The notes below the pieces were generated by a model. The model worked only from the letters and a program-made list of their open reading frames with translations. It was not told the origin of the DNA and ran no database searches. The position numbers and the translations under genes are program-made. Source: Dehalococcoidia bacterium (lineage in GTDB: Bacteria > Chloroflexota > Dehalococcoidia > UBA2979). From it: a stretch of DNA of 64,000 nt. The first letter of the stretch is position 1; every line of letters begins with the position of its first letter. Positions 53,822 through 55,689 of the stretch are shown one piece after another. Location: positions 1,990,544 to 2,054,543 of the forward strand of contig OY839116.1 of assembly GCA_963692775.1 (NCBI GenBank), given 5' to 3'.

Positions 53822-55054
53822 ATGGCGGACTCCGAGAGCCAGGCGCAGGGACCGCCCCTCGAGGGCCTTCGCATCCTCGATCTGACGCAGGGCGTGGCCG
53901 GACCGTACGCGACGAAGCTCTATGCCGACTACGGTGCGGACGTGATCAAGATCGAGCGCCCGGACGGCGGCGATCCCGCGCGCCGCATCGGCCCCTTCCC
54001 CAACGACGAGCCGCACCCGGAGCGGGGCGGTGTCTTCCTGCACATCAACACCGGCAAGCGCAGCGTCACGCTCAACCTCAAGACCGCGAGCGGACAGAGC
54101 ATCCTCCGACGCCTCGCCGCGAGCGCGGACCTCGTCTTCGAGAACTTCCGCCCGGGCACGCTCGAGCGGCTCGGGCTCGACGCGGATCGGCTCGCGGCGC
54201 TGCGCCCGCGGGCCTCGCTGATCCGCATCTCCAACTTCGGGCAGTACGGCCCGTACCGGGACTTCGAGGCCGACGACATGCTGCTCTACGCCACGGGCGG
54301 CGTGCTGCAGATCACCGGCGTGCCGGAGCGCGAGCCGATCAAGATCGGGCTCCATGCCCCGCTCTTCCTCGCCGGGGCCGCCGCCGCGGCGATGTCGTTC
54401 GGCGCGCTCATGGCGGCGGACCGCGACGGCGTGGGCCAGACCGTCGATGTCTCGATCCAGGACGTGCTCAGCGCCTCGATGGATCGCGGCGGGCCGAACC
54501 TCGTCGCCTGGCAGTACTCGGGCTCGCTGATGCACCTGCGGATGCGCGAGCTGCGGCGCAACGCGATCCCGCGAGGCGTCTACCCCTGCCAGGACGGCTA
54601 CGTCTTCGTCAACGGCGCGCTGCAGTGGTTCGACCGCTTCTGCCGCATGATCGGGCATCCGGAGCTGATCGACGACGAGGAGACGCTCGCCCGGCTCGAG
54701 CACATCGAGCACGGCGGGGACCTCGACGCGCTGCTCTACCCGTGGCTGCTGGAGCGCACGAAGCAGCAGGTGATGGAGGAGGCGCAGGAGGTGGGGCTCC
54801 CCGTCGGCGCGATCAACTCGATGGCGGACGTCTTCGCCGACCCGCACCTGCGCGAGCGCGAGTTCATCACCACGATCGAGCACCCCGAGGCAGGGGCGTT
54901 CGAGTTCCCCGGGCTGCCGATCCGCATGCACGGCACGCCGGGCGCGCTGCAACGCGCGCCGCTGCTCGGCGAGCACACCAGCGAGGTGTTGACCTCCGAG
55001 CTCGGCTACACGTCCGGGGACGTCGTGATCCTCCGCCAGCGCAACATCGTCTGA
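53822..55054 (+). CDS. Family III CoA-transferase (CaiB/BaiF)
   Basis: LEGLRILDLTQGVAGPYATKLYADYGADVIKIERPDGGDPAR. Confidence 0.85.
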   Translation: MADSESQAQGPPLEGLRILDLTQGVAGPYATKLYADYGADVIKIERPDGGDPARRIGPFPNDEPHPERGGVFLHINTGKRSVTLNLKTASGQSILRRLAASADLVFENFRPGTLERLGLDADRLAALRPRASLIRISNFGQYGPYRDFEADDMLLYATGGVLQITGVPEREPIKIGLHAPLFLAGAAAAAMSFGALMAADRDGVGQTVDVSIQDVLSASMDRGGPNLVAWQYSGSLMHLRMRELRRNAIPRGVYPCQDGYVFVNGALQWFDRFCRMIGHPELIDDEETLARLEHIEHGGDLDALLYPWLLERTKQQVMEEAQEVGLPVGAINSMADVFADPHLREREFITTIEHPEAGAFEFPGLPIRMHGTPGALQRAPLLGEHTSEVLTSELGYTSGDVVILRQRNIV

Positions 55055-55168
55055 CGGTGCGGGCGCGCCCCGCACTCCGCGCGCCGGATCGTGGTAGTAC
55101 CCTGTATCACGTGGATTGATTCTCGCGGCCTGCGCACGCAGCCGATGCTGGCAGTGGAGGCTACCGAC

Positions 55169-55471
55169 ATGACTACGACCGACGCACTGGATGACAGGTT
55201 CGACGATGCCGAACGGGGTCTGGACTGGCTCGAGAAGCTCGAGGCCCTGCAGGTCCGCGCCGCATCCGATCGAGCTGCATACGATGTTGCGCAATACGTG
55301 CTGAAGCTGCGGGAGGCTGTCACCGCGTTGGCCGGTGACCGGTCCGCCTCGGAACTGGCCGAGGATGTCGGCGCGGAGACGGCGCAGTTGGTGGAGGAGT
55401 TGCAGCGGGCGGGTGATGACGACTACTGGAATACGACGATCCTCCCGGCACTCCTCAAGACCGACCCCTGA
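55169..55471 (+). CDS. Small hypothetical helical protein lying between two copies of the CoA-transferase 3' end
   Basis: MTTTDALDDRFDDAERGLDWLEKLEALQ...; internal Met of ORF 55091..55471. Confidence 0.3.
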   Translation: MTTTDALDDRFDDAERGLDWLEKLEALQVRAASDRAAYDVAQYVLKLREAVTALAGDRSASELAEDVGAETAQLVEELQRAGDDDYWNTTILPALLKTDP

Positions 55472-55473
55472 GG

Positions 55474-55629
55474 ATGCCTGCTCCGCTGCCGCCCATCCGC
55501 ATGCACGGCGCGCCGGGCGCGCTGCGCCGCGCGCCGCTGCTCGGCGAGCACACCAGCGAGGTGTTGACCTCCGAGCTCGGCTACACGCCCGGGGACGTCG
55601 TGATCCTCCGCCAGCGCAACGTGGTCTGA
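55474..55629 (+). pseudogene. Remnant 3' fragment of a family III CoA-transferase gene (51 codons)
   Basis: Copy 2 of the direct repeat described in the 54910..55629 entry. Confidence 0.5.
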
Positions 55630-55689
55630 CGGAGCGCCAGGCCGCCGCCGTTCGCCATGTGGGAACCAGCGGGCCCTTGATCGCGTCCA

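Follow-up and report, generated by a model that had tools for sequence, protein, structure and literature searches.

The question raised by this locus is how the end of one gene came to stand twice, on either side of a small gene. In the window, that is, the whole 64,000-nt stretch of Dehalococcoidia DNA that was analysed, a repeat search found a direct repeat (54913-55080 versus 55488-55655) with 89% identity over 168 nt. Its solid part was formed by the end of a CoA-transferase gene (copy A) and a second copy further downstream (copy B), with 134 of 142 positions identical and 8 mismatches in the last 141 nt; blastn gave 94.4% identity over 142 nt (E=2e-60). Since only these two high-identity copies were found by blastn in the whole 64-kb window, a chance repeat was ruled out by their number together with the E-value. 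An assembly artefact was ruled out as well, because five independent assemblies, made in different projects, show the structure. The duplicated 3' gene end around an insert with a small ORF, which had been noticed in a preliminary description, was thus confirmed, and the insert between the copies was found to be 433 bp long (55055-55487). In four relatives, copies A and B ceased to be similar at the TGA that closes the CoA-transferase gene; in the window the similarity ran 3-7 nt beyond that TGA.

Features of the locus (positions in the window)
Feature	Position	Strand	Description
Family III CoA-transferase gene	53822..55054	+	intact, 410 aa; Pfam CoA_transf_3, E=1.3e-94
Repeat copy A	54913..55054	+	final 47 codons of the CoA-transferase gene plus its stop; the copy in use
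Left end of the insert	55055..55087	+	GC hairpin GTGCGGG (55057-55063) / CCCGCAC (69-75)
Upstream region of the small gene	55088..55168	+	imperfect palindrome GTGGTAGTACCCTGTATCAC (55091-55110); ribosome-binding site GGAGG (55156-55160)
Small gene	55169..55471	+	encodes an acidic protein of 100 aa, a predicted helical hairpin; family confined to Dehalococcoidia
Spacer 3' of the small-gene stop	55472..55487	+	like the post-stop sequence in other genomes (GATGCC...)
Repeat copy B	55488..55629	+	second copy of the CoA-transferase 3' end, out of place and most likely non-coding
Conserved upstream region and PGA_cap gene	55630..57564	+	Pfam PGA_cap, E=1.7e-48

The CoA-transferase gene itself was intact. 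Its product matched PF02515 over the full length of the profile (positions 1-366 of 366) and attained the cut-off of no NCBIfam equivalog, and its orthologues (75-97% identity) were all 408-411 aa long.

Twelve orthologous loci with 4-6 kb flanks and precomputed Pfam content were compared. The same structure with the same junctions was found in the window and in four other Dehalococcoidia MAGs (L001, L007, L042 and L008), and seven loci of the same neighbourhood were without the small-gene insert. In relatives of the latter kind, the stop codon of the CoA-transferase gene was directly followed by the upstream region and gene of PGA_cap, and this upstream region could be aligned over 8 loci. 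Two of the seven (L093 and L097, CoA-transferase identity of 92%) were exact empty sites, with one gene end and then the sequence that elsewhere lies 3' of copy B. The orthologous loci without the insert, which the preliminary description had proposed to look for, therefore do exist. The structure was not carried by all relatives with a divergence expected from neutral drift, as that description had envisaged for the contrary case; it was polymorphic, and its two copies evolved in concert. These results demonstrated that the insertion is real and old, and that it is common to five related sponge-type Dehalococcoidia genomes, while their closest relatives are without it.

The ORF of the inserted gene had GGAGG ahead of it. 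An AlphaFold2 model of the 100-aa product showed a helical hairpin with a mean pLDDT of 74, in agreement with the small helical protein described before. More than 330 homologues were obtained, and the 120 listed were 99-103 aa long and 73-95% identical. At least 140 Dehalococcoidia species carried the gene, and its genomic surroundings were diverse, with at least 12 synteny arrangements. An exhaustive search of 1.8 billion representatives gave only about 48 clusters, with members of ~100 aa or fragments, and there was no informative fusion among these. The locus thereby brings to light a narrow and strongly conserved 100-aa family of SAR202-type Dehalococcoidia. The sole Pfam family touched was DUF7342, with weak local similarity to residues 14-79 (E=0.0064); the 16.9 bits obtained were far under the gathering threshold of 31.6 bits, so the protein is not a member. 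No match was found in NCBIfam or PHROGs, the best sequence match in the PDB had E=0.13 and the best Foldseek match to the PDB E=2.5. Structure prediction, Foldseek and the PDB sequence search gave no hint of function.

Nucleotide homology to the small-gene loci of other genomes began at 55088/55089 and spanned 55088-55478 only, which corresponds to the small gene with its own upstream region. The palindrome in this region was kept in L011, L016, L032, L035 and L060. Within the left end of the insert, the five-genome alignment showed 83 further nt in L042 and L008; neither these nor the 33 nt of the window resembled sequence at any other locus. A simple scan for sigma-70 promoters and terminators found nothing, no RNA family was detected in 54700-55900 (best E=0.79, far under threshold), and the folding of 55040-55175 was no better than that of shuffled sequences (z=0.43).

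The GC3 of the small gene was 0.77 in the window, where host genes have about 0.95, and 0.76-0.79 over the five carriers, whose neighbouring core genes had 0.94-0.98. For the carriers, a small-gene GC3 of 0.94-0.99 was predicted from a fit to 80 other genomes, with a residual standard deviation of 0.06. The small gene, and with it the insert, is compositionally foreign. The GC3 values of both repeat copies were host-like.

Foreign composition, an exact empty site in relatives and a repeat ending at the stop codon are all what would be expected if an element with an integrase had once entered the CoA-transferase gene at its 3' end, bringing a surrogate gene end, and all of it but the small gene and the two repeats had later been deleted. 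The architecture is that of e14 at icd in E. coli: the prophage lies between two copies of a gene end, duplicated over 163 bp, and excision recombines icd with icdC (PMC6379469, PMC13626634). As with e14 and phage 21, the last 140-165 bp or so of a gene are present twice in direct orientation with an insert between them. The gene is completed by the copy upstream, a fragment is left out of place downstream, and loss of the insert would recombine the two copies into a single gene. A second cargo (a cupin gene in L094) at the same site with its own gene-end remnant, and the toxin-antitoxin cassettes of 'mobile mystery protein A/B' type in the region, would also suit such an element. However, e14, a prophage of 15 kb, encodes an integrase and its surrogate end is phage-borne, whereas the insert here has 433 bp, one non-phage gene, no recombinase nearby, and flanking copies which look host-derived and are homogenised. 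Of the marks of an integrative element, target-derived direct repeats (142 nt) and an empty site (L093, L097) were observed, but a recombinase gene and mobile-element cargo were not.

No recombinase gene was found in the insert, among the window ORFs from 48 to 64 kb, or in the twelve orthologous loci, and none lay beside the small gene in the genomic contexts sampled elsewhere. A tblastn search with the small protein found nothing in 50,697 phage and 72,556 plasmid records, and IMG/VR gave no match either. A pattern scan of IMG/VR with the CoA-transferase end found no viral contig carrying it, and a scan of JGI metagenomes with the same end returned only paralogues of 33-38% identity. Flanking repeats of the target type were found at none of about 80 other small-gene loci. 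The duplicated length also differed with the cargo (142 nt versus at least 195 nt), leaving no common att boundary. We regard a decayed integrative element as unlikely, with a modest chance of being the correct account. The small gene is, as judged from its contexts and the searches, an ordinary chromosomal gene and not a gene of a mobile element. Of the integration architecture proposed before, a true insertion, a reconstituted gene end, the empty sites and the foreign composition stood, and the part of a site-specific integrase found no support. The same holds for the suggested miniature element: recombinases, flanking repeats at other loci and matches in phage, plasmid or IMG/VR records were all lacking, and blastn found no second copy of the insert in the 64-kb window. 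Nothing indicates that the element was integrase-driven or is currently mobile. An attL/attR-like picture need not imply an integrase, which calls for caution with automated callers of islands and prophage remnants.

Repeats of 27-44 nt had been reported at five other small-gene loci. One of the five, that of L027, was inspected and rejected as a target duplication, being a dispersed REP-like hairpin element (CCCCTCTCCC...GGCGAGGGGAG). A transposon or MITE was also rejected in view of the missing terminal inverted repeats at the ends of the insert, the length of the duplication (142 nt), the single copy in the window and the lack of any at 80 loci. An integron cassette is mobilised by an IntI integrase, has a 3' attC site and is usually promoterless. 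Here no integrase was present at any locus, the sequence 16 nt after the gene is a copy of a gene end and not an imperfect inverted-repeat attC, and the gene has its own conserved upstream region; this candidate was a poor fit too.

The account that we favour, and to which we give a little better than an even chance, is an old insertion of acquired DNA with a 142-bp target duplication, without a site-specific recombinase. It would have happened once, in an ancestor shared by the window lineage, L001, L007, L042 and L008, because the junctions are identical in the five genomes and the distribution of the 83-nt indel fits vertical descent. About 515 bp of horizontally acquired DNA, donated by a Dehalococcoidia relative of lower GC and carrying one small gene together with its upstream control region, may have been set between the CoA-transferase gene and the originally adjacent PGA_cap gene, and a later 83-nt deletion would have cut the insert to 433 bp in the window. 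An illegitimate join would duplicate the host's own gene end if one end of the acquired DNA was attached just past the stop codon and the second some 142 nt ahead of that codon. Possible microhomology at the junctions (GCTGC at the right, GCGGGCG at the left) was weak evidence in a genome of 71% GC. Template switching, repair of a staggered break and single-crossover capture of a circularised fragment are candidate routes.

The last of these routes resembles Campbell-type single-crossover integration, as of suicide plasmids, in which non-replicating DNA comes to lie between direct host repeats without a dedicated recombinase, and the repeats can later delete the insert or convert each other. 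Unlike there, the 575-bp circular intermediate is hypothetical, and a donor arrangement able to provide the homologous arm was not found in 80 small-gene loci. Direct host repeats around foreign DNA without a dedicated recombinase are also a likeness to illegitimate or homology-facilitated illegitimate recombination of foreign DNA (Hulter and Wackernagel 2008, as cited in PMC12359135). Since copy A would leave the CoA-transferase intact and copy B would keep the original 142 bp ahead of PGA_cap, the duplication would preserve both neighbours and so make the insertion tolerable. The small gene would since then have been retained as a working gene. The locus would be a clean natural case of a single foreign gene taken in beside an essential-looking frame with both neighbours undamaged. 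The ending of the duplication at the stop codon in both types of cargo counts against a single illegitimate join, as it would also fit a surrogate gene end borne by an element.

The two repeat copies were not independent of each other. Within each of the five carriers they differed by only 3-9 mismatches per 141 nt, while the repeat of L008 differed from those of other genomes at 13-20 positions. Genome-specific states common to A and B were found at 8 sites in L008, 3 in L007, 1 in the window and 1 in L001. Because A and B share such genome-specific variants, this concerted evolution indicates that the copies exchange sequence by gene conversion. Gene conversion also erases whether copy A came with the insert, a point counting against the single-join account. 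Private changes summed over the five genomes were 23 in copy B versus 11 in copy A. Copy B is thus relaxed, changing about twice as fast as copy A, and is without a conserved start codon.

The preliminary description had credited copy B with an in-frame ATG and stop. An ATG (55474) is indeed in frame in the window, but it lies outside the repeat and is specific to the window. In four relatives, a 1-nt deletion puts the ATG or GTG ahead of copy B out of frame, so ATG 55474 is not a conserved ORF start. That copy B might be a functional mini-gene for the C-terminal 42-51 residues of the transferase would agree with this ATG, with the lack of any stop or frameshift in five genomes, and with private changes of about 1:1 nonsynonymous to synonymous, which is under the neutral expectation. 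On the other hand, no ribosome-binding site was present, conversion from copy A would account for the integrity, the rate of change is that given above, and the equivalent in L094 is broken by an internal deletion. The probability of a functional mini-gene is very slight indeed, and copy B is most likely a non-coding relic. It may be described as a spacer whose likeness to copy A is maintained by gene conversion and which then offers later recombination a landing pad. The 142-bp repeats would be able to collapse, restoring the empty site.

Sequence divergence at the locus was uneven. The insert was 96-97% identical in all five carriers, compared with 89-97% for the adjacent gene, and between the window and L008 dS was 0.04 for the small gene and 0.31 for the CoA-transferase gene. 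These values could be explained by an active mini-cassette which enters at the CoA-transferase stop, independently of a recombinase or with that of the host, and was gained separately by L008 and the window clade. That A and B carry the variants of their own genome in each carrier, and that a gene-end duplicate accompanies the different cargo of L094 at this site too, would agree with this. But the junctions and the left 33-117 nt occur at this site only, there is one copy per window, and flanks of this kind were seen at none of about 80 other small-gene loci. Shared A/B variants are present also in close genomes having the insertion by descent, and gene conversion is needed anyway. We know of no bacterial mechanism that makes 142-bp target duplications. 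Moreover, L008 was about as close to the window as L042 at CoAT2 (94.0% versus 94.6%), with 94.3% and 95.5%, respectively, at the PEP mutase gene, and replacement of the PrpF-CoA-transferase allele could explain the discordance. An active mini-cassette is accordingly judged quite improbable. The low dS also raised the possibility that the insert had passed horizontally between L008 and the window clade, and allele replacement was found to be the simpler explanation. The PrpF-CoA-transferase allele of L008 was probably replaced, an extra assumption which the ~94% identity at PEP mutase and CoAT2 supports. It is the contrast in dS that demands this assumption, and this counts against the single old insertion.

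The remaining loci showed what else had arrived at the same spot. L088, L095, L096 and L098 had an extra PGA_cap gene, 13 nt after the CoA-transferase stop codon. In L094, the cupin gene was followed by a decayed remnant of the CoA-transferase end, which spanned the stretch from about -195 to -143 together with the final 27 nt and was broken by an internal deletion. In the more distant L087 and L091, a paralogous CoA-transferase gene stood next in tandem. It may be supposed that the second gene end is left from an older and longer tandem duplication of the CoA-transferase gene, or of a large 3' part of it, upstream of PGA_cap in the ancestor of both groups of genomes. Erosion would have shortened the second copy from the 5' side, different genes (the small gene, cupin) would have come between the copies, and loci with no second copy would have collapsed by recombination. 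The L094 remnant exceeds 142 nt as this would predict, easy collapse between direct repeats would account for several empty sites, and the tandem paralogues of L087 and L091 would agree with it. However, two independent gene insertions and two erosions would be needed, each ending 16-23 nt past the stop of the cargo; the L087 paralogue was only about 66% identical over the gene end and is not a recent duplicate; and a longer intact second copy was found at no locus. A tandem relic has a small chance of being right.

At least two types of cargo at the site thus precede a partial copy of the end of the flanking gene. The cupin gene of L094 and its remnant reaching to about -195 hint at a recurrent, perhaps site-directed process, and count against a single illegitimate join. 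In a more speculative form, the CoA-transferase stop codon would be a recurrent capture site where single-gene cassettes enter, each duplicating 140-200 bp, with no element-encoded recombinase; the repeat-flanked unit could leave as a small circle and be taken up again by related genomes through homologous recombination. We consider this improbable; if true, it would be a homology- or replication-driven capture of cassettes, an undescribed route of bacterial gene gain. In L041, L067 and L085 a CoA-transferase gene also lay beside the small gene. These were distant paralogues (<45% identity) in paralogue-rich genomes, and their position was therefore taken as coincidence.

Between the two convergent CoA-transferase genes, relatives differed in carrying a cupin gene, a second PGA_cap gene, Fic-HTH or PrlF-PIN modules, or unknown ORFs, and the accessory content comprised toxin-antitoxin pairs, small genes of lower GC3 and alternative surface-protein alleles. 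In its varied accessory genes between conserved convergent genes, the interval resembles additive genomic islands or integration hot spots beside conserved genes (for instance tRNA-proximal islands with partial gene repeats). Unlike these, the 12 loci had no integrase-bearing occupant, and the repeat lengths differed with no common core. This interval is best read as a recombination hot spot, a small hypervariable locus of PGA_cap alleles and toxin-antitoxin cassettes in sponge-associated lineages. PGA_cap genes were only 81-85% identical between allele classes, even where the CoA-transferase genes were 99.9% identical. Following the single old insertion favoured above, copy B could have served as a homology anchor for recombinational swaps of PGA_cap alleles. 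The last codons of copy B (GTGGTC) and the sequence 3' of them resembled the L094-type allele.

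The final 142 nt of the CoA-transferase gene (copy A) were found to be repeated directly downstream (copy B) with 94.4% identity (blastn, E=2e-60), and 8 mismatches separated the two copies over the final 141 nt. The 433 bp between them carried a small ORF, which bore out the gene-end duplication around an insert reported in the preliminary description. No third copy of the repeat was detected within the 64-kb window. The similarity between the copies stopped at the stop codon in four related genomes and extended a few bases beyond it in the window. The insert was single-copy in the window and lacked terminal inverted repeats, and a unit with these ends was not found at the other loci compared. 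The window has a G+C content of 71%, and its nearest public relatives are uncultured Dehalococcoidia/Chloroflexota MAGs.

Features of the repeat, the insert and their neighbourhood (window coordinates)
Feature	Position	Remarks
tRNA-like gene	29181-29279 (-)	four-base anticodon (cgcg), no amino acid assigned (ARAGORN)
Acyl-CoA dehydrogenase and family III CoA-transferase paralogues	46682-50627, 60581-63362	many copies; three transferases in 10 kb
AAA_14/DUF4143 gene	49386-50627	
Family III CoA-transferase gene	53822-55054	full-length PF02515, E=1.3e-94
Copy A	54913-55054	the gene's own 3' end
Insert	55055-55487	
Imperfect palindrome	55091-55110	GTGGTAGTACCCTGTATCAC
GGAGG	55156-55160	ahead of the small gene
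Small gene	55169-55471	100 aa, inside the insert
ATG of copy B	55474	
Copy B	55488-55629	
Variable hot spot	55630-60580	between two convergent CoA-transferase genes
PGA_cap gene	55714-57564	
Lower-GC segment	57565-59423	1.86 kb, between PGA_cap and Fic genes; not in L001
271-aa ORF	57686-58501	no family match
136-aa ORF	58989-59399	no family match
HicB-like antitoxin	63456-63932	

The small gene is real, and the family to which it belongs is narrow and chromosomal. Among 5.8 billion proteins searched, 333 relatives of its product were found (99-103 aa, 73-95% identical among the 120 matches listed), and exhaustive profile searching across 1.8 billion representatives gave only 48 clusters, all of ~100 aa or fragments. 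Among GTDB contigs with one genome per species, a relative was encoded at 140 loci; the 80 loci kept were all from Dehalococcoidia, SAR202 or Chloroflexota MAGs, with one gene copy per fetched stretch and at least a dozen different gene neighbourhoods. The protein gave no family above threshold in Pfam, NCBIfam or PHROG and no significant PDB match by sequence or by fold, and phage, plasmid and IMG/VR collections contained no match to the gene. The AlphaFold2 model was a helical hairpin (helices 4-55, 60-67 and 69-95; mean pLDDT 74). Nucleotide homology between the window and other small-gene loci was limited to 55088-55478, which is the gene itself with ~80 nt of upstream and a few bases of downstream sequence. 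The imperfect palindrome in the upstream part (GTGGTAT-N3-ATATCAC type) is likely an operator or promoter element; it also accompanied the gene, ~80 nt upstream, in a subset of genomes (small-gene loci L011, L016, L032, L035 and L060). At another small-gene locus, L027, the gene was flanked by dispersed REP-like hairpin elements (CCTCACCCCC..CCCCTCTCCC..GGCGAGGGGAG) at 5890-5935 and 6310-6350, with more copies around 7000-7300; one frame of these elements gives PLPEGEG-type peptides within spurious ORFs.

The GC3 of the small gene was 0.76-0.79 in the five genomes that carry the insert, against 0.94-0.98 in neighbouring core genes. In other genomes it follows local G+C, and the fit predicts 0.94-0.99 for the carriers (residual sd 0.06). 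On these compositional grounds, the insert is a horizontal acquisition, as yet only partly ameliorated. The closest sampled relatives of the gene were 80-82% identical, in genomes with flanking G+C of 58-64%. Accessory genes of the same interval also showed lowered GC3 (Fic 0.81, HTH 0.80, orf271 0.75, PrlF 0.68 and PIN 0.78).

Only in the window and in loci L001, L007, L042 and L008 of related MAGs did a CoA-transferase gene adjoin the small gene and copies of the gene-end repeat flank the latter; the insert junctions were identical in all five. An additional 83 nt were present in L042 and L008 close to the insert's left end (5834-5916 in both, between window positions 55084 and 55085), without similarity to any other fetched sequence. 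Because the junctions are the same and the deletion of this segment is common to the window, L001 and L007, the close carriers share the insertion by descent.

Orthologous CoA-transferases were followed into another seven loci in which the conserved surroundings were the same, namely PEP mutase and PrpF on one flank and a further two, convergent, CoA-transferase genes on the opposite flank. Comparison with loci lacking the insert, as had been proposed beforehand, revealed exact empty sites in L093 and L097 (CoA-transferase 92% identical), where the stop codon was followed by the sequence that follows copy B and then by PGA_cap. In L088, L095, L096 and L098 (81-88% identical), a second PGA_cap gene, 81% identical to the downstream one, lay 13 nt past the stop. 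In L094 (89% identical), a cupin gene followed, and behind it lay a decayed CoA-transferase-end remnant, comprising about -195 to -143 and the last 27 nt including the stop, with an internal deletion; its position upstream of PGA_cap was that of copy B. Since empty or differently occupied sites were found in these seven loci, the insert is a presence/absence polymorphism among close relatives, and the spot just past the stop codon received different genes in different lineages. The greater length of the L094 remnant would fit an older, longer tandem duplicate that has since eroded, a reading judged decidedly unlikely. In the more distant relatives L087 (5282-6577) and L091 (5236-6537), with 83% and 67% identity, a same-strand paralogous transferase stood in tandem behind the gene in the place of PGA_cap, and the PGA_cap block may itself be an earlier addition to the locus.

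Within one genome, copies A and B differed at 3-9 of 141 positions, and in every pairing of copies, 13-20 positions set L008 apart from the other genomes. Genome-specific states common to both copies were observed at 8 sites in L008, 3 in L007 and 1 each in the window and L001. As the insertion is shared by descent, these states demonstrate that gene conversion between the copies is required. Copy B had accumulated 23 private changes (11 nonsynonymous, 12 synonymous) and copy A 11 (5 and 6). The ATG attributed to copy B is indeed in frame in the window, but it falls outside the repeated sequence, and a 1-nt deletion in each of the four relatives puts it out of frame there. Because of the excess of private changes and the lack of a conserved start codon, copy B is a relaxed, probably non-coding relic kept readable by conversion; that it is a functional mini-gene is hardly credible. 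The last codons of window copy B (GTGGTC) and the sequence behind them resembled the L094-type allele more than that of the closest relatives, and the window PGA_cap was only 81% identical to that of L001 and L042, which suggests a PGA_cap allele swap with its left crossover inside copy B.

The insert differed by 11-18 mismatches per 432 nt across the five carriers, and the dS between the window and L008 was 0.04 for the small gene versus 0.31 for the adjacent CoA-transferase gene (89% identical). Movement of the insert between lineages could account for this discordance. Against this, L008 shared 94% identity with the window at both PEP mutase and the downstream CoA-transferase. For the latter gene, L042 (94.6%) and L008 were about equally close to the window, and at PEP mutase L042 (95.5%) was slightly closer. 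The L008 CoA-transferase gene at the insertion site was equally distant (87-89%) from every genome compared. The simpler reading is that L008 is a member of the window clade that subsequently gained a divergent PrpF-CoA-transferase allele by homologous recombination, after which conversion carried the imported variants from copy A to copy B. Mosaic recombination is evidently common at this locus, and L095 and L096 were 99.9% identical in CoA-transferase and 85.8% in PGA_cap.

The preliminary description had proposed site-specific integration. Insertion, a reconstituted gene end and foreign cargo were all found, but nothing pointed to site-specific integration or to present-day mobility. The architecture works in the same way as the attL/attR of an element integrated at a gene's 3' end. 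An example is e14 at icd, with a 163-bp duplication of the gene end and recombination between icd and icdC upon excision (PMC6379469, PMC13626634). This likeness speaks for a decayed integrase-borne element. However, the defining feature of that class, a recombinase gene, was found neither in the insert, nor in the surrounding ORFs of the window, nor at any of the 12 orthologous loci, and the cargo had no link to mobile elements; such an origin is considered unlikely. Since no recombinase gene was found, and the insert is single-copy, without terminal inverted repeats and with ends not found elsewhere, a one-off illegitimate insertion of acquired DNA is slightly favoured. The locus is nearer to Campbell-type or illegitimate capture (Hulter and Wackernagel 2008, cited in PMC12359135), within a small additive hot spot.

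With one end joined immediately past the stop codon and the second 142 nt before it, such an insertion would have duplicated host sequence. The ancestral arrangement has the start of PGA_cap 13-110 nt past the CoA-transferase stop. Selection would favour insertions leaving a full reading frame on the left and the native pre-PGA_cap sequence on the right; only these leave both neighbours intact, and the 142-nt duplicating event would therefore be favoured. Ordinary repeat biology would have followed: the A/B conversion demonstrated here and, putatively, both collapse of the repeat back to the empty site and a homology-anchor role for copy B. A cassette still active without a recombinase, making the duplication anew at each insertion, seems highly improbable. 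The cupin gene of L094 is the main reason against dismissing a recurrent, site-directed process. To a specialist, a long duplication that encloses one acquired gene and is maintained by conversion is neat, not startling; the recurrence at the same stop codon is what deserves further attention.

Gene content between the two convergent CoA-transferase genes was variable in the window, L001, L008, L042 and L093-L098. In relatives this interval held one or two PGA_cap genes, cupin, toxin-antitoxin pairs (PrlF-PIN or Fic-HTH, the latter 'mobile mystery protein B/A', TIGR02613/TIGR02612) and unknown ORFs, and GC3 was lowered in all of these. The PGA_cap allele classes were only 81-85% identical, which suggests frequent allele replacement or diversifying selection of this probable lipoprotein. 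In L093, a 54% identical relative of the 136-aa ORF was tandemly repeated within a 207-aa ORF. Farther away in the window, the tRNA-like gene could represent an unusual tRNA or else a false call.
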